This document shows positions 6,437 through 39,835 of a stretch of DNA of 64,000 bases, piece after piece; position 1 is the first letter of the stretch; each line of letters begins with the position of its first letter. Position numbers and translations under genes: made by a program. The notes beneath the pieces were generated by a model, which made no database searches, had not been told where the DNA came from, and saw only the letters and a program-made list of their open reading frames with translations. The stretch lies in the sequence record LR597660; one strand, 5' to 3'. The stretch comes from Escherichia phage T4_ev151.

Positions 6437-7054
6437 ATGTACCACTTTGTATATGAAACAACAAATCTAATAAACGGTAAAAAGTATATAGGAAAACACT
6501 CTACTGATGACTTGAATGATGGTTACCTTGGTTCCGGTAAGGCAATTCAGCAGGCTATAAAGAAATATGGTGAAAACAATTTCTCTAGAACAATATTAAA
6601 AGAGTTTAAAACTTCTGAAGAAGCGTACATGTATGAAGAAGAAATTATAACTCCTGAAATAATAAAAAGCAAAAATTATTATAATATGAAACCTGGTGGA
6701 ATTGGTGGAATTGTTATGACTACAGAGGTTATAGCAAAGATGAAAGAATCTTCCGCTAAGAGATTTGAAAACTCACCGGGCACGGTATTAGGTACAACTT
6801 GTTACACCAATGGAACTAAAAATATTTTTATTAAACCTGGAGAACTTGTTCCAGAAGGATTTGTAAAAGGAATGGTTCATCCTAATAGAAAGTCCAGAAA
6901 AGGATGTAAAGTCAAACCGACTACCACAGGAACTTTTTGGGTCAATAACGGTGCAATAAATAAATTAATACAACCAGACGGTATTATTCCCGACGGATTT
7001 ATTAAAGGTCGTCTCATGAAAAGAGATTCTAAAGGCAAATTTAGTAAGGCATAA
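6437..7054 (+). CDS. segD: free-standing GIY-YIG homing endonuclease (Seg family)
   Basis: 205 aa; N-terminal ...VYETTNLINGKKYIGKHS... GIY-YIG-type motif; C-terminal duplicated I(P)xGF(V/I)KG DNA-binding-like repeats; sits between inh and uvsW as T4 segD. Confidence 0.75.
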   Translation: MYHFVYETTNLINGKKYIGKHSTDDLNDGYLGSGKAIQQAIKKYGENNFSRTILKEFKTSEEAYMYEEEIITPEIIKSKNYYNMKPGGIGGIVMTTEVIAKMKESSAKRFENSPGTVLGTTCYTNGTKNIFIKPGELVPEGFVKGMVHPNRKSRKGCKVKPTTTGTFWVNNGAINKLIQPDGIIPDGFIKGRLMKRDSKGKFSKA

Positions 7055-7056
7055 TT

Positions 7057-8565
7057 ATGGATATTAAAGTACATTTTCACGACTTCAGCCATGTACGCAT
7101 CGATTGTGAAGAGAGCACGTTCCACGAATTAAGAGATTTCTTTTCGTTTGAGGCCGATGGATATAGGTTTAATCCTCGCTTCAGATATGGCAACTGGGAT
7201 GGACGAATCCGTCTTTTAGATTATAATCGTCTTCTTCCATTTGGCTTGGTCGGGCAAATTAAAAAGTTCTGTGATAACTTTGGCTATAAAGCCTGGATTG
7301 ACCCACAAATTAACGAAAAAGAAGAATTATCAAGAAAAGATTTTGATGAATGGCTTTCTAAATTAGAAATCTATTCAGGAAATAAAAGAATTGAACCACA
7401 CTGGTATCAAAAAGATGCAGTGTTCGAAGGATTAGTTAATCGTCGTAGAATTCTTAATCTTCCAACATCTGCAGGTAAATCGTTAATTCAAGCTCTGCTT
7501 GCTCGGTATTATTTGGAAAATTATGAAGGTAAAATTCTTATCATTGTTCCAACAACTGCTCTAACAACTCAGATGGCTGATGACTTCGTTGACTATCGTT
7601 TATTCAGTCATGCAATGATAAAGAAAATTGGTGGCGGAGCATCAAAAGATGATAAATATAAAAATGATGCACCAGTCGTTGTTGGTACATGGCAAACTGT
7701 AGTAAAACAACCGAAAGAATGGTTCTCACAGTTTGGAATGATGATGAATGATGAATGCCATCTTGCTACAGGAAAAAGTATTTCATCTATCATATCAGGT
7801 TTAAATAACTGCATGTTCAAATTTGGTCTATCTGGTTCATTACGTGATGGCAAAGCCAATATCATGCAGTATGTTGGAATGTTTGGTGAAATATTTAAGC
7901 CAGTAACGACTTCTAAGTTAATGGAAGATGGACAAGTAACTGAGCTAAAAATTAATAGTATTTTTCTTCGCTATCCCGATGAGTTCACTACTAAATTAAA
8001 GGGAAAAACTTATCAAGAAGAAATAAAAATTATTACTGGGCTCAGTAAAAGAAATAAATGGATCGCTAAATTAGCTATTAAGCTTGCGCAAAAAGATGAA
8101 AACGCTTTTGTCATGTTTAAACATGTATCGCACGGTAAAGCTATTTTCGATTTAATTAAAAATGAATACGATAAAGTTTATTACGTATCAGGGGAAGTTG
8201 ATACCGAAACCCGCAATATAATGAAAACTTTAGCTGAAAATGGTAAAGGAATAATTATAGTAGCTAGTTATGGTGTATTTTCTACTGGTATTTCAGTTAA
8301 AAATCTACATCACGTTGTTTTAGCGCACGGTGTTAAATCAAAAATCATTGTATTACAAACAATCGGTCGTGTATTACGTAAGCATGGTTCTAAGACAATA
8401 GCAACAGTCTGGGACCTCATAGATGATTGTGGTGTTAAGCCAAAATCTGCTAATACGAAAAAGAAATATGTTCATTTGAACTATCTTTTAAAACACGGCA
8501 TTGATCGTATTCAGCGCTACGCAGATGAAAAATTTAATTACGTAATGAAAACAGTTAATTTATAA
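7057..8565 (+). CDS. uvsW: UvsW DNA/RNA helicase
   Basis: 502 aa; Walker A (LPTSAGKS) and DECH box (MMNDECH); T4 position between segD and uvsY. Confidence 0.9.
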   Translation: MDIKVHFHDFSHVRIDCEESTFHELRDFFSFEADGYRFNPRFRYGNWDGRIRLLDYNRLLPFGLVGQIKKFCDNFGYKAWIDPQINEKEELSRKDFDEWLSKLEIYSGNKRIEPHWYQKDAVFEGLVNRRRILNLPTSAGKSLIQALLARYYLENYEGKILIIVPTTALTTQMADDFVDYRLFSHAMIKKIGGGASKDDKYKNDAPVVVGTWQTVVKQPKEWFSQFGMMMNDECHLATGKSISSIISGLNNCMFKFGLSGSLRDGKANIMQYVGMFGEIFKPVTTSKLMEDGQVTELKINSIFLRYPDEFTTKLKGKTYQEEIKIITGLSKRNKWIAKLAIKLAQKDENAFVMFKHVSHGKAIFDLIKNEYDKVYYVSGEVDTETRNIMKTLAENGKGIIIVASYGVFSTGISVKNLHHVVLAHGVKSKIIVLQTIGRVLRKHGSKTIATVWDLIDDCGVKPKSANTKKKYVHLNYLLKHGIDRIQRYADEKFNYVMKTVNL

Positions 8566-32822: not shown

Positions 32823-34001
32823 TTAAAAGTATTTTTTAAAACTCATCATAACTTTATCATCAACATCATTATCAATCTGTGCAACAAGATAAGATGACAG
32901 TTCTACTTCTTGCGGCGCGGATTGAACATTATCAGAATTAAGGTATTCACGAATCCAAGGATATGGATGTTTAACCGGAGCATCGGTAATCGGGCATGGA
33001 AGACCACACTGTTTCATACGAGATACAGTTAAGTAATCAATAAAGCTCCACATGCTATTTGTATTTAATCCAGGAACATCGCCATCTTTAAATAAATGAA
33101 CTGCCCAATCTTTTTCTTGGCGGTTAACTTCCATGAAAATATCAACTGCTTCTTGTTCACACTCTTTGGCAATTTTAACCCATTCATCGCCATCAGTACC
33201 GGATTGAAGTTGACGAATAATATATTGTGTACCTTTAAGATGAAGCTGCTCATCACGTGCAATAAATTTCATAATCTTCGCATTACCTTCCATGATTTCC
33301 ATGTTCTTATGGAAGTTGAAAGTACATGCAAAGGATACATAAAAACGAATAGCTTCCAGAGCATTGATAACGTGCAGACAGAGATAAAGCGACTTCATCA
33401 GGTCTCGTTTACATTCTTCCAAATGAGTGAGACTGTTTGAATATGCTTCTAAATCATATTCATTTTCAGCAAAATAACTAAAGTTTTCTTTGGCGTTTTC
33501 CCAAATACGTGTCTTGTCCAGAACATCATCATAATAACGACCAATAGATTCAGCACGTTTCATGATAGCTTTATCTAATACAATCTCATCAAATACCTTT
33601 GACGGATCAGTATAAAGATTTCGCATAATATGAGTGTATGAACGACTGTGAATGGTTTCACTAAAAGTCCATGTAGCAACCCATGTATCAAGGCTTGGGT
33701 CTGAAATCAATGACATAAGTACAGCAGACGGTGCACGACCCTGAATGCTATCCAGAAGTGATTGATACTTCAGATTATTAGTAAAAATATTCTGCTGATA
33801 TTGAGGAAGCTTATTAAACTGTGCAGCATCCATCATTAAGTTTACTTCTTCAGGACGCCAGAAAAATGACAACTGCTTTTCGGTTAAATCTTCAAAAACT
33901 TTATGACGTTGAATATCATAACGCGCAATACCAAGACCTGAACCAAAAAACATAGGTTCTTTTAAAACATCAACTGGATTTGTATTAAAAACTGTAGACA
34001 T
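32823..34001 (-). CDS. nrdB: ribonucleotide reductase small subunit NrdB (uninterrupted)
   Basis: ATG at 34001 with AGAGGA SD gives 392 aa MSTVFNTNPVDV...; one continuous ORF, no intron; start overlaps mobE stop (TAATG). Confidence 0.92.
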   Translation of the reverse strand: MSTVFNTNPVDVLKEPMFFGSGLGIARYDIQRHKVFEDLTEKQLSFFWRPEEVNLMMDAAQFNKLPQYQQNIFTNNLKYQSLLDSIQGRAPSAVLMSLISDPSLDTWVATWTFSETIHSRSYTHIMRNLYTDPSKVFDEIVLDKAIMKRAESIGRYYDDVLDKTRIWENAKENFSYFAENEYDLEAYSNSLTHLEECKRDLMKSLYLCLHVINALEAIRFYVSFACTFNFHKNMEIMEGNAKIMKFIARDEQLHLKGTQYIIRQLQSGTDGDEWVKIAKECEQEAVDIFMEVNRQEKDWAVHLFKDGDVPGLNTNSMWSFIDYLTVSRMKQCGLPCPITDAPVKHPYPWIREYLNSDNVQSAPQEVELSSYLVAQIDNDVDDKVMMSFKKYF

Positions 34002-34732
34002 TAATTTTTCCTCTTTAAAATTCTGCCGCGTTTCCAACCTGGCGGTATAATATCATCTTTACCTATAAGCGTGCATTCACTTCCATTATTAATCCATTTC
34101 TTACCGCGGATTCCTTTATAATCTCTTGGTTGTATTTTATCAAACTTTGCATCAAGTTGATATGACCATCTAAATCCATAGGCATATTGAAATTTACCCT
34201 CAGCACAATATTTGATATTTGACCCGTTTCCATTAACTGACCTGGACGCTGCCGCAATAGAGTGAAAGGTTTCTATGAAATCCCCATCTAATGAGAATTT
34301 ATGTATTTCGATAGATGGGCATGCATACCTATTCACGTTTGATACATGTTGTTTAGTTTCGTTTTTATGATGCTTGCCTAACATTCCTCTAGGATGAGGA
34401 TTATTTTTCCAATATTTCTTAAAGAAATCAGAATTAGCTTTAGCAAATAATTTTCTGTGCAAGCTATACAATCTGTTATTAATTCTATTACCAGCTTTAT
34501 CTGTTACCATTAACGTTAACGCAGAGGCAAGCCCAAAATGGCCTTCATTTATCTTACATAGTAATAGATGCGCTATAAAATGTTCTCTAGCTGTTAATTC
34601 AACTAAATTTTCTTTATCATCAGAACCTCCCATGCATTTAGGGACTATATGATGTGTCTCTTTATATTCAGATAAAGGTTCCCGAGCCTGAGCTCGGGAA
34701 ATTAGGTCATTATAGATTTTTTGATAATTCAT
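34001..34732 (-). CDS. mobE: free-standing HNH homing endonuclease
   Basis: 243 aa; HNH motif (HHIVPKCMGGSDDKENLVELTAREHFIAH); C-terminal IPPGWKRG DNA-binding-like motif; TAATG overlaps with nrdA stop and nrdB start. Confidence 0.8.
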   Translation of the reverse strand: MNYQKIYNDLISRAQAREPLSEYKETHHIVPKCMGGSDDKENLVELTAREHFIAHLLLCKINEGHFGLASALTLMVTDKAGNRINNRLYSLHRKLFAKANSDFFKKYWKNNPHPRGMLGKHHKNETKQHVSNVNRYACPSIEIHKFSLDGDFIETFHSIAAASRSVNGNGSNIKYCAEGKFQYAYGFRWSYQLDAKFDKIQPRDYKGIRGKKWINNGSECTLIGKDDIIPPGWKRGRILKRKN

Positions 34733-36996
34733 TACAATTTACACGCTGCACAATCGTCGGCTTTAGGAGTTTCTATTTCATAATCATCAGTACCAGAACC
34801 ATCACGGGTATTATGATAATAGAAATTTTTAATGCCATAATACCATCCGTATAGCATGTCATCAATCATTATTGACATTGGAACCTTGCCTTTAGGGAAG
34901 ATTTGGGGGTCATAGTATGTATTCGCTGAAGCTGATTGACATACCCATTTCAGCATAATAGCTACCTGCGTAAGATAAGGTTTATTACCTTTCTTAGCTA
35001 ATTTCCATGTATAATCATATAGGTCTATGTTATGTTCAATATTGGGCACGACTTGATTAAAGGAACCCTCTTTTGATTCTTTAACAGAGACTGGTCCACG
35101 TGGAGGCTCGATACCGTTTGTACTGTTAGAAACTTGGGAAGATGACTCACATGGCATAAGTGCTGATAGTGTGCTATTACGGATGCCAAAGAGCTTAAGG
35201 TCTTCCCGCAGCGACGACCAGTCACAAACGTATTTTGGAGCTGCGATTTGGTCAATCTTTTTATTGTACCAGTCGATAGGTAATTCGCCTCGAGACCAAC
35301 GAGTGTCTGAATAATATTCGCAAGGTCCTTTTTCTTTGGCGAGCTTAATGGATGCTTTAATGAGTCCATACTGTAATCTCTCAAATAGTTCATGTGTTAA
35401 ATCGTTAGCATCTTCATAAGAAGCAAAGTTACTTGCCAACCAAGCTGCATAGTTAGTAACACCTACACCGAGGTTACGACGCTTTTTAGCTTTTTCTGCT
35501 TCAGGAACCGGATATCCTTGGTAATCCAAAAGATTATCAAGAGCACGAACCTGGACTTCTGCCAATTCATTAATTTTATCTTGGTCTTGCCAGTCAAAAT
35601 TATCCAGTACGAATGCAGAGAGAGTACACAATCCAATTTCAGCATCAGGACTATTCACATCATTTGTTGGAATAGCAATTTCACAACACAAGTTACTCTG
35701 ACGAATAGGTGCCTTTTCACGAATAAACGGAGTATAGTTATTCGTATTATCAATGAACTGCACATAAATCCTTGCGGTTCCTGAACGTTCAGTCATGAGC
35801 AATTCAAATAGTTCACGGGCTTTAATACGCTTTTTACGAATATTAGGGTCTTTTTCTGCTGCTTCGTATAATTCACGGAAACGGTTTTGGTCTTTAAAAT
35901 AAGAATAATAAAGCTCGCCACCCATTTCATGTGGACTGAACAAAGTAATGTAATCGTTCTTTCCGAATCGTTCCATCATCAAATCATTCAGTTGAACACC
36001 ATAATCCATATGACGAATGCGGTTTTCTTCTACGCCTTTGTTATTTTTCAAAACAAGAAGATTTTCAACTTCCAAATGCCAAATAGGATAATAAGCAGTA
36101 GCAGCGCCGCCACGAATTCCACCCTGTGAGCATGATTTAACAGCAGTCTGAAAATGTTTCCAAAAAGGAATAACACCAGTATGGCGTACTTCACCCATGC
36201 CAATCTTAGAACCTTCAGCACGAATCATACCAACGTTAATACCAATTCCAGCACGTTTAGAGATATATTCAACAATTGAAGCGGAAGCCTTATTGATAGA
36301 CTTCAATGAATCTCCTGCCTCAATAACAACGCATGAACTAAACTGTCGAGTCGGAGTACGACAACCAGCCATAATAGGAGTTGGCAGTGAAATCTGTCGA
36401 GTAGATACTGCTTCATAAAAACGAATAACATGTTTTAATCTGTCAACAGGTTCATCTTGATGCAATGCCATTCCAATAGTCATAAATGCAAACTGTGGAG
36501 TTTCATAAATTTGACCAGTGGTTTTATCTTTAACGAGATATTTTTCTTTTAATTGCATCGCCCCGGAATAAGTAAATTCCATATCCCGCTCGTGCTTAAT
36601 TTTTGATTCTAAAAATGTAATTTCTTCTGCAGAATATTTTGACAACAATTCAGGGTCGTATTTACCTTCATTTACACAGTAAGAAATATGGTCAATAAAT
36701 GAACGTGGTTCATATTGTCCGTAAACATGCTTACGAAGAGCAAACATTAAACAGCGTGCAGCTACGTATTGATAATCAGGCTCTTCAACTGAAATAGAAT
36801 TCGCAGCAGCCTTAATTACAATGGTTTGAATGTCATCAGTGGTCATTCCATCACGGAGATATGATTTAATATTTTCATATAATTCATAAGGATCTACAGA
36901 TGTTCCTTCAGCTGCCCAAGATAAAACTTTAATAATTTTTTGCGGGTCAAAGCTCTGAGAAACACCACTACTTTTGATAACATTAATTAATTGCAT
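34732..36996 (-). CDS. nrdA: ribonucleotide reductase large subunit NrdA
   Basis: 754 aa; class I RNR alpha features including a C-terminal Cys pair (..CAACKL). Confidence 0.93.
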   Translation of the reverse strand: MQLINVIKSSGVSQSFDPQKIIKVLSWAAEGTSVDPYELYENIKSYLRDGMTTDDIQTIVIKAAANSISVEEPDYQYVAARCLMFALRKHVYGQYEPRSFIDHISYCVNEGKYDPELLSKYSAEEITFLESKIKHERDMEFTYSGAMQLKEKYLVKDKTTGQIYETPQFAFMTIGMALHQDEPVDRLKHVIRFYEAVSTRQISLPTPIMAGCRTPTRQFSSCVVIEAGDSLKSINKASASIVEYISKRAGIGINVGMIRAEGSKIGMGEVRHTGVIPFWKHFQTAVKSCSQGGIRGGAATAYYPIWHLEVENLLVLKNNKGVEENRIRHMDYGVQLNDLMMERFGKNDYITLFSPHEMGGELYYSYFKDQNRFRELYEAAEKDPNIRKKRIKARELFELLMTERSGTARIYVQFIDNTNNYTPFIREKAPIRQSNLCCEIAIPTNDVNSPDAEIGLCTLSAFVLDNFDWQDQDKINELAEVQVRALDNLLDYQGYPVPEAEKAKKRRNLGVGVTNYAAWLASNFASYEDANDLTHELFERLQYGLIKASIKLAKEKGPCEYYSDTRWSRGELPIDWYNKKIDQIAAPKYVCDWSSLREDLKLFGIRNSTLSALMPCESSSQVSNSTNGIEPPRGPVSVKESKEGSFNQVVPNIEHNIDLYDYTWKLAKKGNKPYLTQVAIMLKWVCQSASANTYYDPQIFPKGKVPMSIMIDDMLYGWYYGIKNFYYHNTRDGSGTDDYEIETPKADDCAACKL

Positions 36997-37553: not shown

Positions 37554-37865
37554 TTACACCGCCATTTTTCCTTTCAAGACGCCGTGGGACTGATAATCTT
37601 TGAGAACGAAATCTTTAGGCCTGAGTTTAAGAATGTATTCCAATTGTTCTTTAGTAGAAAGATAGCGGAATTTATAAGGCAATCCGCCTATTACCAGTTC
37701 ACAAAGCTCTTTAGGTTCACGACGCAAAATTTCTTTACATTGTTCTACGTGATTCATATAGATATGAGTATTACCGCCAGAAAATATCAAATCTCCAGGA
37801 ATAAGATTACACATCTTAGCTACAATATGAACTAACGCAGCATATGATGCAATATTAAATGGAAG
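37554..37865 (-). CDS. td: thymidylate synthase, exon 2
   Basis: Encodes LPFNIASYAALVHIVAKMCNLIPGDLIFSGGNTHIYMNHVEQ... (TS C-terminal region); the 3' splice site follows ...UCUGAACAUAAUG on the - strand. Confidence 0.9.
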   Translation of the reverse strand, partial: LPFNIASYAALVHIVAKMCNLIPGDLIFSGGNTHIYMNHVEQCKEILRREPKELCELVIGGLPYKFRYLSTKEQLEYILKLRPKDFVLKDYQSHGVLKGKMAV

Positions 37866-38881
37866 CATTATGTTCAGATAAGGTCGTTAATCTTACCCCG
37901 GAATTATATCCAGCTGCATGTCACCATGCAGATCAGACTATATCTCCAACTTGTTAAAGCAAGTTGTCTATCGTTTCGAGTCACTTGACCCTACTCCCCA
38001 AAGGGATAGTCGTTAGGCATTTATGTAGAACCAATTCCATTTATCAGATTTTACACGATAAGTAACTAATCCAGACGAAATTTTAAAATGTCTAGCTGCA
38101 TCTGCTGCACAATCAAAAATAACCCCATCACATGAAATCTTTTTAATATTACTAGGCTTTTTACCTTTCATCTTTTCTGATATTTTAGATTTAGTTATGT
38201 CTGAATGCTTATGATTAAAGAATGAATTATTTTCACCTGAACGATTTCTGCATTTACTACAAGTATAAGCAGAAGTTTGTATGCGAACACCGCACTTACA
38301 AAACTTATGGGTTTCTGGATTCCAACGCCCGTTTTTACTTCCGGGTTTACTGTAAAGAGCTTTCCGACCATCAGGTCCAAGTTTAAGCATCTTAGCTTTA
38401 ACAGTTTCAGAACGTTTCTTAATAATTTCTTCTTTTAATGGATGCGTAGAACATGTATCACCAAACGTTGCATCAGCAATATTGTATCCATTAATTTTAG
38501 AATTAAGCTCTTTAATCCAAAAATTTTCTCGTTCAATAATCAAATCTTTCTCATATGGAATTTCTTCCAAAATAGAACATTCAAACACATTACCATGTTT
38601 GTTAAAAGACCTCTGAAGCTTTATAGAAGAATGGCATCCTTTTTCTAAATCTTTAAAATGCCTCTTCCATCTCTTTTCAAAATCTTTAGCACTTCCTACA
38701 TATACTTTATTGTTTAAAGTATTTTTAATCTGATAAATTCCGCTTTTCATAAATACCTCTTTAAATATAGAAGTATTTATTAAAGGGCAGTCCTACAATT
38801 TAGCACGGGATTGTCTACTAGAGAGGTTCCCCGTTTAGATAGATTACAAGTATAAGTCACCTTATACTCAGGCCTCAATTA
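37866..38881 (-). mobile_element. group I self-splicing intron in td (1016 nt) carrying I-TevI
   Basis: Exon 1 frame hits UAA at the first intron codon (...VDVFLG then UAAUUGAGGCCUGAGUAUAAGGUG...); 1016 nt, the length I recall for the T4 td intron. Confidence 0.9.
38013..38750 (-). CDS. I-TevI: intron-encoded GIY-YIG homing endonuclease I-TevI
   Basis: 245 aa MKSGIYQIKNTLNNKVYVGSAKDFEKRWKRHFKDLEKGCHSSIKLQRSFNKHGNVFECSILEEIPYEKDLIIERENFWIKELNSKINGYNI... matches recalled I-TevI. Confidence 0.95.
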   Translation of the reverse strand: MKSGIYQIKNTLNNKVYVGSAKDFEKRWKRHFKDLEKGCHSSIKLQRSFNKHGNVFECSILEEIPYEKDLIIERENFWIKELNSKINGYNIADATFGDTCSTHPLKEEIIKKRSETVKAKMLKLGPDGRKALYSKPGSKNGRWNPETHKFCKCGVRIQTSAYTCSKCRNRSGENNSFFNHKHSDITKSKISEKMKGKKPSNIKKISCDGVIFDCAADAARHFKISSGLVTYRVKSDKWNWFYINA

Positions 38882-39430
38882 ACCCAAGAAAACATCTACT
38901 GATCGTTGATACCACTGCAAATCCAAATAGCCATTACGCACATTAAACTGATAGAACATATGACAAGGCGGTAATGCCATCTGCTTGAGTTCAGCTGGAT
39001 TCCATGCTGAAACAATTTGACGCCTATCATTTGGCAATTTTTTAATACGATCAACAACTTCTATAATTTGGTCTACACCGCCAAAATCGCGCCATTGTTT
39101 TCCATAAATTGGACCAAGTTCACCGCTATGGTATCCTAAATCTTTTGCTTGATTTTCGTAATTTTCATCCCAGACTGTTTTGCCTTGGATTAACGAATCA
39201 TGCTGAATTACTCGTAAATCATTGACATTTGTGCTTCCCGATAAAAACCATATTAGCTCAGCAATGCAAGCTTTCCAGGCGAGCTTTTTAGTTGTTACTG
39301 CAGGAAAACCTTTACTTAAATCCCAGCGTAATTTAGTACCGAACAAAGCAATTGTTCCTGTGCCCGTTCGGTCATCGGTTTCATAGCCATTTTCAAAAAT
39401 GTCTTTAATTAAATCTTGGTATTGTTTCAT
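38882..39430 (-). CDS. td: thymidylate synthase, exon 1
   Basis: 183 codons MKQYQDLIKDIFENGYETDDRTGTGTIALFGTKLRWDL...; with exon 2 gives a 286-aa TS. Confidence 0.92.
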
Positions 39431-39475: not shown

Positions 39476-39835
39476 TCAATACGGTTTAGCATCAAATTTT
39501 CTCTCAATTTCAGGCGTGAAATATAATTCTTTACCGCGTTTGGAAAAGCGACCAATAATATGATAATTATTCTCATCAAACGCGATATTACCAATATCCA
39601 TAGCTTTCAACCAAATATCGATATTTCTATCCAGCTTTATATCAAAATTCCAATACGGAGAACTATTACCGAAAATACTACAAGCGGATTCAGTGAAACA
39701 GCTACTATAAATCTTGTCTTTAGGAACTACTAATTGATAGACACCTTTAATAAACTGAGGACCTTGCCATTTTGGCTGTTTCACGTCTTTTTCTAATAGA
39801 ATAGGGTAATAATTAAAATTCATATTTTCCGCCAC
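39476..39835 (-). CDS. hypothetical protein inserted between frd and td (no T4 counterpart recalled)
   Basis: 119 aa from GTG 39835, or 115 aa from ATG 39823; no recognised motifs; fills a ~410-bp gap where I recall T4 frd and td overlapping. Confidence 0.5.
   Translation of the reverse strand: MAENMNFNYYPILLEKDVKQPKWQGPQFIKGVYQLVVPKDKIYSSCFTESACSIFGNSSPYWNFDIKLDRNIDIWLKAMDIGNIAFDENNYHIIGRFSKRGKELYFTPEIERKFDAKPY

Follow-up and report, generated by a model that had tools for sequence, protein, structure and literature searches.

An experimentally studied counterpart of the locus considered here is mobE of phage T4, whose biology is set out in PMC2790892 (Wilson and Edgell 2009) and PMC2988022. 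The nick made by T4 MobE was mapped inside nrdB (nt 122-126), a hairpin within T4 mobE terminates about 30% of the transcripts, and the middle promoter of nrdB is located in the 3' part of the gene (PMC2790892). According to a survey of ribonucleotide reductase genes in phages, T4 and its RB relatives commonly have mobE inserted between their class Ia genes (PMC3653736). The nrdA/nrdB slot also houses Hef of phage U5, likewise a homing endonuclease and reported to cut nrdB.

We studied the corresponding locus of Escherichia phage T4_ev151 within a stretch of 64,000 nucleotides (sequence record LR597660), which is called the window in the following. The locus comprises three genes on the same strand, with mobE between nrdA and nrdB:

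34732-36996, minus strand: nrdA, class Ia ribonucleotide reductase large subunit, 754 aa (ATP-cone, Ribonuc_red_lgN, Ribonuc_red_lgC; Pfam, 4e-137)
34001-34732, minus strand: RB3-type mobE, free-standing HNH homing-endonuclease gene, 243 aa (RB3/RB5 identity and phrog_655)
32823-34001, minus strand: nrdB, ribonucleotide reductase small subunit, 392 aa plus stop, uninterrupted (Ribonuc_red_sm, 3e-37)

The nrdA TAA (34734-34732) ends on base 34732, with which the mobE ATG begins; likewise, the mobE TAA ends and the nrdB ATG begins on base 34001. That is, nrdA/mobE and mobE/nrdB each share a single nucleotide, which therefore results in TAATG at both junctions. A preliminary description of the locus had reported just such a 243-aa HNH gene wedged between nrdA and nrdB with TAATG overlaps on both sides, and the two shared bases bear this out.

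We are confident that the 243-aa ORF represents the RB3 allele of mobE, i.e., a selfish free-standing HNH homing endonuclease in the nrdA/nrdB slot of a Tequatrovirus phage. Its C-terminal 179 aa are 99.4% identical to the protein annotated 'mobE: MobE' of RB3 (AY262130) and to those of RB5/7/10, and the overall identity between the ORF and RB3/RB5 mobE amounts to 99.4-99.9%. Over the whole gene, 1/732 nt separates the window from RB5, Jbel and Sf23. RB3 mobE (AY262130, protein ABI48926) and its RB5/6/7/9/10 counterparts are the same gene, with 243 aa and the same TAATG overlaps. Within PHROGs, the ORF matches phrog_655 ('homing endonuclease') at 1e-57. Its earlier assignment as a free-standing homing-endonuclease gene of the mobE kind is supported.

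That the ORF is instead Hef, or an unrelated HNH gene which merely resembles mobE, has a practically negligible probability. While U5 Hef (AY262133) does sit in the same slot, it is an unrelated protein of 544 aa without detectable similarity to the window ORF, tblastn with Hef is blank at the window locus, and the near-identity to RB3/RB5 mobE leaves no room for either variant. We also rejected a fusion of T4 mobE with nrdB.1, since nrdB.1 is without similarity to the ORF. nrdB.1 is the tail of the T4/LZ7-type MobE protein, and the T4 reference annotation 'mobE + nrdB.1' (NC_000866) represents a single gene split by a 2-nt difference.

The encoded protein consists of the following parts:

34568-34732, minus strand: catalytic HNH module (mobE nt 1-165, aa 1-55), about 97% DNA identity to T4 mobE
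34004-34567, minus strand: allele-specific C-terminal module, aa 56-243, presumed to be DNA-binding (alignment, Pfam)
34202-34294, minus strand: NUMOD1 in the C-terminus, aa 147-177 (Pfam, above cut-off)

The H-N-H residues of the catalytic module are H27/H28, N42 and H51/H55. All of them are among the positions invariant in 25 homologues (down to 34% identity), i.e., E25, H27, H28, P31, C33, G36, N42, E50, H51 and H55. A structure model of the ORF (pLDDT 88) contains strands at 25-28 and 43-46 followed by a helix at 48-61, such that homologue alignment and model together place the motif on a beta-hairpin plus helix, as in the HNH beta-beta-alpha-metal fold. The Pfam HNH family (PF01844) scores 19.3 bits (E = 0.0012), slightly below the curated cut-off of 21.4.

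Next, we compared the protein with T4 MobE. The two have the slot, the UAAUGA coupling to the nrdA stop, the terminator hairpin and the HNH module in common (T4: NP_049844), and within aa 1-60 only 5 substitutions are observed. From aa 56 on, in contrast, T4 MobE is unrelated to the remaining 188 aa of the window protein, and past about aa 62 no similarity to T4 MobE or nrdB.1 was found. T4 and LZ7-type MobE proteins (213-232 aa) carry NUMOD3 repeats and a CPHCG-containing tail, whereas the window protein is of the NUMOD1 type and closes with a WINNG..LI..IPPGWKRGR motif. In Yersinia, Citrobacter, Salmonella and Erwinia phages, the nrdA/nrdB slot contains orthologues with 59-78% identity. Since the C-terminus matches RB3 MobE and not that of T4, the ORF belongs to the RB3 allele and not, strictly speaking, to the T4 allele. 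The original label 'mobE-like' thus applies with respect to T4 MobE for aa 1-55 but not for the other three quarters of the protein, for which the true match is the RB3 allele.

A PDB sequence search with the ORF gave only a marginal match, in which a group II intron maturase aligned through its HNH motif. The best fold match of the ORF model is I-HmuI (1u3e; probability 0.98, E 2e-3, 178 aligned columns), at 16% sequence identity and with a low global TM-score of 0.21-0.29, which we read as a probable effect of flexible domain orientation. I-HmuI, an HNH homing endonuclease with nicking activity from Bacillus phage SPO1, is encoded within an intron, while the window gene is free-standing. The order of parts is the same, with the HNH domain at the N-terminus and an extended DNA-binding region behind it. 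The window mobE thus has an I-HmuI-like two-part build of N-terminal HNH nuclease and NUMOD1-type C-terminal region.

We also inspected the gene for the regulatory elements described for T4 and identified two:

34669-34700, minus strand: intrinsic-terminator-like hairpin in the mobE 5' end, TTCCCGAGC-TCAG-GCTCGGGAA then CCTTTATCTG
34047-34071, minus strand: candidate MotA-type middle promoter for nrdB in the mobE 3' end (predicted by motif match)

The hairpin, with a 9-bp stem including 6 GC pairs (-17.9 kcal/mol, z = -3.9), is identical in sequence to that of T4 mobE. The predicted promoter is composed of cGCTTAt (34071-34065), a 12-nt spacer and TATTAT (34052-34047). In its relaxed form the motif occurs 20 times in 128 kb (both strands), i.e., about 0.016 occurrences are expected per 100 nt of one strand. 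No GGAG-like Shine-Dalgarno element precedes the mobE start (...AAATTGTAATGAAT), and the AUG overlaps the nrdA stop (UAAUGA), an arrangement that matches the T4 description. nrdB is preceded by a Shine-Dalgarno element of its own (GAGG, 34013-34010, 8 nt before the ATG). With its lack of a Shine-Dalgarno element, the start coupled to the nrdA stop and the weak internal terminator hairpin, the window mobE keeps the regulatory layout of T4 mobE, and nrdB its own ribosome-binding site.

As to nrdB itself, the preliminary description had stated that the gene is uninterrupted (392 aa) while T4 nrdB carries an intron with I-TevIII, and both statements hold. The window gene is collinear with the T4 and RB5 nrdB exons and shows no break where the intron would be located:

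33325-33326, minus strand: empty nrdB group I intron site (nrdB nt 676/677; ..TTTGCAT / GTACTTTC.., insertion point at the slash; alignment with the intron-containing T4 and RB5 genes)

No Rfam match to a group I intron was obtained in nrdB or mobE (only td matched), and neither tblastn nor blastn detected a remnant of I-TevIII or of the nrdB intron in the window nrdB. A cryptic intron or I-TevIII remnant within nrdB was therefore rejected on the basis of alignment, Rfam and BLAST. Elsewhere in the window, the td intron with I-TevI is present. Both tests preset to refute the preliminary description left it standing: nrdB holds no cryptic intron, and the ORF shows clear similarity to MobE.

RB3 and its near-identical siblings differ from the window in that their nrdB contains a group I intron with full-length I-TevIII. 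Among matching related phage records, this full-length form is the minority state (85/662). For the RB3-type mobE allele, 42 database rows with intronless nrdB face 11 with the intron, which corresponds to about 34 and about 9 distinct sequenced T4-like phages, respectively. The combination of RB3-type mobE with intronless nrdB, i.e., endonuclease present and intron absent as initially described, is therefore the majority state for the allele and no anomaly. At a distance of about 680 nt, the nrdB intron and its I-TevIII form a mobile element in their own right, which is inherited independently of the mobE cassette.

The slot between nrdA and nrdB is either empty or filled with RB3-type mobE, T4/LZ7-type mobE, hef or other inserts. 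On the basis of this sequence diversity, for which 34 loci chiefly from other genera were drawn from IMG/VR, the slot appears to be an insertion hotspot.

To assess mobility, we compared the cassette with its flanks. Among RB5, Jbel and Sf23, mobE differs at 0/732 nt, while differences of 1-6% are seen in the flanks (adjoining 300 nt of nrdA, first 330 nt of nrdB); the cassette is identical even in phages with flanks 4-5% apart. Identical tracts, 801-993 nt long, end within 24-48 nt of the cassette edges: on the nrdA side 24 nt (Jbel-Sf23: 210 nt) before the mobE ATG, on the other side at nrdB nt 48-54. Furthermore, the gene is intact and under purifying selection, with a dN/dS of 0.07-0.10. 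From these patterns mobE looks active and mobile. T4-like phages recombine very frequently, so that short identical tracts could also arise without an endonuclease-made break.

Alternatively, mobE might be a stranded and immobile element that is retained since its deletion would remove signals needed by nrdB, such as an embedded promoter or translational coupling. The candidate promoter in the mobE 3' end fits this explanation, and Wilson and Edgell reason that in T4 a promoter of this kind disfavours the deletion of mobE (PMC2790892). We nevertheless regard it as very improbable: promoter retention cannot explain a dN/dS of about 0.1 over the whole frame with invariant catalytic residues, the identical cassette across adjacent genes of 4-5% divergence is left unexplained, and nrdB has its own Shine-Dalgarno element.

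For a mobile RB3-type mobE, the question is where its product would cut. We studied the flanks of carriers and non-carriers. Apart from scattered single sites, the differences between the window and AugustSocin, which lacks mobE, are confined to nrdA -126..-1, the cassette and nrdB nt 4-6; within nrdB, only 6/1179 nt differ (nt 4, 5, 6, 348, 404, 801). The last 18 nt of nrdA separate the two groups at five variable sites (-18, -15, -13, -4 and -2): all mobE carriers have G,G,G,G,A there (..DCAACKL*), and all phages with an empty slot or with hef have T,T,C,A,G (..DCSSCKL*; 21 loci). The AugustSocin comparison also suggested that the nrdA block -126..-100 is linked to mobE. This was rejected, since T2H (empty) has the window version and the mobE-carrying slur04 the other.

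The site nicked by T4 MobE has the following counterpart in the window:

33876-33880, minus strand: position homologous to the T4-MobE nick site (nrdB nt 122-126; sequence comparison)

In T4/LZ7-type phages, the nrdB 5' block that surrounds the nick site has diverged, whereas in the window it has not: its nrdB nt 7-179 are identical to those of the mobE-less T2H and also to AugustSocin. The diverged, 'resistant' block is found in 4/4 phages of the T4/LZ7 type and in 2/2 with hef; among those of the RB3 type, only 1/9 has it. From these comparisons, which comprise about 20 loci, we infer that the target of RB3-type MobE probably lies near the nrdA/nrdB junction and not at nrdB nt 122-126. It is placed away from the T4-MobE nick site because the DNA-binding part is unrelated to that of T4. 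Cleavage near the junction had been expected in the preliminary description; the flank analysis favours this for the RB3-type allele, while T4 MobE nicks inside nrdB.

Whether RB3-type MobE might share the nrdB nt 122-126 target after all has to be weighed against this, with carriers either tolerating self-nicking or being otherwise protected. Its catalytic module is nearly identical to that of T4, and self-cutting would have parallels that count in support: Sandegren and colleagues are said to have found in 2005 that the free-standing endonucleases SegH and Hef also cut their own genomes. Moreover, Wilson and Edgell grouped RB3 together with the phages that carry mobE, and in their proposal it is the HNH domain that recognizes the polymorphic nt 114-131 (PMC2790892). 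Still, we consider a shared target unlikely, given the unrelated C-terminal 188 aa, the scarcity of the 'resistant' block among RB3-type phages compared to T4/LZ7-type and hef phages, the end of the identical cassette tracts before nt 122, namely at nrdB nt 48-54, and the agreement of the window nrdB with mobE-less T2H and AugustSocin over nt 7-179.

Under the favoured reading, i.e., a mobile RB3 allele with a junction target, a co-infection with an empty-slot relative would allow RB3-type MobE to nick or cut the DNA of the latter. The break would probably lie away from the T4-MobE site, within a few tens of nt of the nrdA/nrdB junction, and its recombinational repair would copy the mobE cassette into the relative.

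Beyond the individual locus, the T-even mobE genes might be a set of competing alleles instead of one endonuclease, a possible reading although the balance tips somewhat against it. Here, one nearly identical HNH module would be combined with swapped, unrelated DNA-binding modules, such that the RB3 type targets the empty junction and the T4 type could overwrite the RB3 type. The shared part would consist of the HNH module, the nrdA end and the terminator, joined to a NUMOD1-type region in RB3 and the window and to a NUMOD3-type region in T4/LZ7. RB3-type carriers, the present phage among them, would keep a T2-identical nrdB 5' region and so remain substrates of T4-type MobE. If true, T4-type alleles could replace RB3-type ones, with the shared 5' module serving as upstream homology arm, and the competition would resemble that of I-HmuI and I-HmuII (SPO1, SP82).

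The arrangement as such is already known, ordinary and annotated in many T4-like phages; dozens of deposited genomes label the gene mobE or 'homing endonuclease'. The value of the analysis is modest and lies in two clarifications. First, the T4 'mobE + nrdB.1' annotation describes one split gene. Second, the experimental results for T4 MobE, i.e., the nick at nt 122-126 and the protective nrdB polymorphisms, are not automatically transferable to the RB3-type allele, because the latter differs in its DNA-binding domain and is not linked to nrdB polymorphisms.

The window is a segment of a T4-like (Tequatrovirus) phage, where a minus-strand run follows the T4 gene order pseT, alc, rnlA, denA, nrdB, HNH ORF, nrdA, nrdA.1, nrdA.2 and td. 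Its ribonucleotide reductase part reads, with identities from Pfam and PHROGs:

34732-36996, minus strand: nrdA
34001-34732, minus strand: HNH ORF (243 aa)
34001 (ATG) down to 32823, minus strand: nrdB (392 aa)

Both the nrdA/HNH ORF and the HNH ORF/nrdB junction are TAATG with a one-base overlap. The preliminary description had given this layout accurately, and its gene identities agree with the domain searches.

It had also called nrdB intronless, in contrast to the T4 gene with its intron and I-TevIII. The statement on T4 is right (T4 I-TevIII being truncated), and so is the claim. Window nrdB is collinear with the T4 and RB5 exons, and no cryptic intron emerged from the alignment. At the intron site between nrdB nt 676 and 677 (window 33326/33325), which holds a 598-nt intron in T4 and one of about 1.09 kb in RB5, the sequence is continuous, i.e., ..TTTGCAT is directly followed by GTACTTTC.. 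there. Rfam at a permissive threshold found no group I intron in window nrdB or the HNH ORF, its sole match lying in td, and BLAST of the window found no remnant of I-TevIII or the nrdB intron. The phage is nevertheless not intron-free, since td has an intron; absence is confined to nrdB. A group I intron encoding I-TevI interrupts the td gene (37557-39430, minus strand), where the RF00028 match (37914-38144; 42.5 bits, E 2e-8) stays below the gathering score of 50 bits.

39430-38882 and 37865-37557, minus strand: td exons
38016-38750, minus strand: I-TevI ORF, protein 100% identical to T4 I-TevI
39479-39823, minus strand: td.1 ORF (115 aa) between frd and td, 98% identical to T2H Td.1

T4 has no gene at the td.1 position, as its frd and td overlap. 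Within nrdB, a hypervariable mosaic segment (window about 33402-33505; nrdB nt about 497-600) has a form common to the window, AugustSocin, NBEco003 and Jbel. Among Tequatrovirus phages, nrdB nt 330-670 are just 71-90% identical, with indels; over the first 330 nt these pairs keep 94-100% identity.

Next, we compared the HNH ORF with known occupants of the nrdA/nrdB slot. Against T4 MobE (141 aa in NC_000866) it is similar at the N-terminus only: aa 1-55 are nearly identical and nt 1-165 about 97% identical to T4 mobE, while the downstream sequences are unrelated. T4 nrdB.1, which fills the remainder of the T4 slot, has no similarity to it. The other known occupant, Hef, was rejected, the U5 Hef being an unrelated 544-aa protein. 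In a tblastn search, the allele-specific C-terminal 179 aa are 99.4% identical to the annotated 'mobE: MobE' of RB3 (AY262130) and to RB5, RB7 and RB10, with 54 records at >=95%, and RB5, Jbel and Sf23 each have a single mismatch to the full gene (1/732 nt). Given these identities and the exclusion of Hef, the HNH ORF is the RB3 allele of mobE. The ORF qualifies as mobE by slot position, start-codon coupling, T4-like HNH module, terminator and its identity to the RB3 gene so named, but not by its C-terminus, which lacks homology to T4 MobE.

Both allele types have aa 1-55 in common, which hold the H-N-H residues and most of a predicted beta-beta-alpha module (strands 25-28 and 43-46, helix 48-61; mean pLDDT 88). 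The catalytic H27/H28, N42 and H51/H55 are invariant in 25 homologues, down to 34% identity. Beyond this module, window MobE has a NUMOD1 motif (aa 147-177, scoring over the Pfam cut-off) as well as WINNG..LI..IPPGWKRGR, a motif at its C-terminus. T4-type relatives, whose protein has 213 aa in slur04, HY03 and LZ7-like phages and 232 aa in T4T, instead have NUMOD3 repeats, and their tail is the same as T4 nrdB.1. Among solved structures the top match is 1u3e (probability 0.98, E 2e-3), which is I-HmuI, an HNH homing endonuclease that nicks DNA and is the prototype of the two-domain kind. The low global TM-score (0.21-0.29) may be read as flexible domain orientation in the predicted model. The slot also holds orthologues at 59-78% identity in phages of Yersinia, Citrobacter, Salmonella, Erwinia and Vibrio.

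Annotation of these alleles varies. The T4 reference (NC_000866; locus positions 6717-7417) has mobE (141 aa) and nrdB.1 (83 aa) apart, while the same DNA is a single 232-aa mobE ORF in T4T (1506-2204) and slur04 has a 213-aa ORF with a tail equal to nrdB.1 (1311-1952); the split is a 2-nt length difference (503 vs 501 nt) from other T4 isolates. In Aplg8 and JoYop (1009-1755), the annotated RB3-type mobE ORF has 248 aa and overlaps nrdB by 17 nt; here nrdB starts one nucleotide earlier in the locus than it does at other RB3-type loci and has AGC as codon 2, like empty-slot phages. Elsewhere in the window, a seg-type endonuclease ORF immediately precedes a putative helicase gene:

6437-7054, plus strand: GIY-YIG seg-type endonuclease ORF (205 aa)
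7057-8565: putative uvsW-like helicase gene (502 aa), read from sequence

The C-terminal FWVNNGAINKLIQPDGIIPDGFIKGR of the former is 50% identical to aa 210-241 of the mobE-like protein, which suggests a DNA-binding tail motif common to a GIY-YIG and an HNH endonuclease.

The regulatory layout of window mobE agrees with that demonstrated for T4 mobE (PMC2790892, PMC2988022). Its ATG overlaps the nrdA stop as UAAUGA, with no Shine-Dalgarno in the upstream sequence, while nrdB has a GAGG of its own 8 nt before its ATG.

34700-34669, minus strand: T4-identical terminator hairpin, TTCCCGAGC-TCAG-GCTCGGGAA then CCTTTATCTG (-17.9 kcal/mol, z = -3.9)
34071-34047, minus strand: predicted promoter inside the mobE 3' end, i.e., MotA-box-like cGCTTAt, 12-nt spacer and TATTAT (about 0.016 matches to this pattern expected per 100 nt)

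We also compared the cassette with its flanks. Among RB5, Jbel and Sf23, mobE differs at 0/732 nt, while RB5 and Sf23 differ at 12 sites in the adjacent 300 nt of nrdA and 18 in the first 330 nt of nrdB. The identical tracts (801-993 nt) stop 24 nt upstream of the mobE ATG (Jbel-Sf23: 210 nt) and at nrdB nt 48-54. Compared with mobE-less AugustSocin, window nrdB differs at nt 4-6, 348, 404 and 801 only, and 21/30 differences in the last 900 nt of nrdA fall within the last 126 nt. Over 21 loci, nrdA ends in ..DCAACKL* wherever the slot holds a mobE allele, whichever it is, and in ..DCSSCKL* wherever it does not, a perfect linkage that covers five variable sites within the final 18 nt; 7/9 RB3-type loci have TCT as nrdB codon 2. 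The dN/dS of RB3-type alleles is 0.07-0.10. Such a pattern, where the cassette is near-identical and the co-converted flanks are very short although the backgrounds otherwise diverge, would be the footprint of a homing element. A dense polymorphic nrdA block (34831-34857, 126 to 100 nt before the nrdA end) alters the NrdA C-terminal region (DDMLYGWYYGI vs DDLLYFWYFGG); its linkage to mobE was rejected, as empty-slot T2H has the window form and mobE-carrying slur04 the other.

In vivo mapping placed the T4 MobE nick at nt 122-126 of T2 nrdB, and mobE-carrying phages are reported to be polymorphic at this site (PMC2790892). In the 21 loci, a diverged nrdB 5' block is found in 4/4 T4/LZ7-type, 2/2 hef, 1/9 RB3-type (Aplg8) and 0/6 empty-slot phages. 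Window nrdB nt 7-179 are identical to T2H, nick site included (window 33880-33876). Based on these counts, the T2H-identical nrdB, the unrelated C-terminus and the tract ends by nrdB nt 48-54, we infer that the RB3-type enzyme would break the empty allele near the junction, between nrdA -126 and nrdB +47, in agreement with the preliminary description, and that T4 MobE would be able to act on the window phage. The main caveat on both is the frequent general recombination of T4-like phages.

Finally, we assessed how common the arrangement is by querying with nrdB joined to the mobE segment specific to this allele, where one piece indicates an intronless and two pieces an intron-containing nrdB. 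RB3-type mobE occurs with intronless nrdB in 42 rows (about 34 distinct phages; closest EC121, 99.1%, and Jbel, 98.3%) and with the intron in 11 (RB3/5/6/7/9/10, vb_GEC_SH_GT, pSe_SNUABM_01, G2540-3). The 3' part of T4/LZ7-type mobE is found in 71 records, and a full-length nrdB intron with I-TevIII in 85/662 matching records. The slot is a hotspot, being empty (41-59 nt) or holding RB3-type mobE, T4/LZ7-type mobE, hef or other 400-500-nt inserts. Such inserts in more distant genera (loci L024-L029 and L036-L038, about 400-500 nt upstream of position 2501) have no match to mobE, hef or nrdB.1. In view of the many annotated relatives, and since a mobE insertion separating the class Ia genes is known to be common in T4 and its RB relatives (PMC3653736) and the nrd region is a known endonuclease hotspot (PMC2790892), intronless nrdB with RB3-type mobE is an ordinary, already annotated arrangement, nothing new in kind. 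The sole mildly novel point, part of which prior literature may already cover, concerns the two alleles: they may combine one common nuclease module with swapped DNA-binding modules, and thus have different targets and possibly compete with each other.
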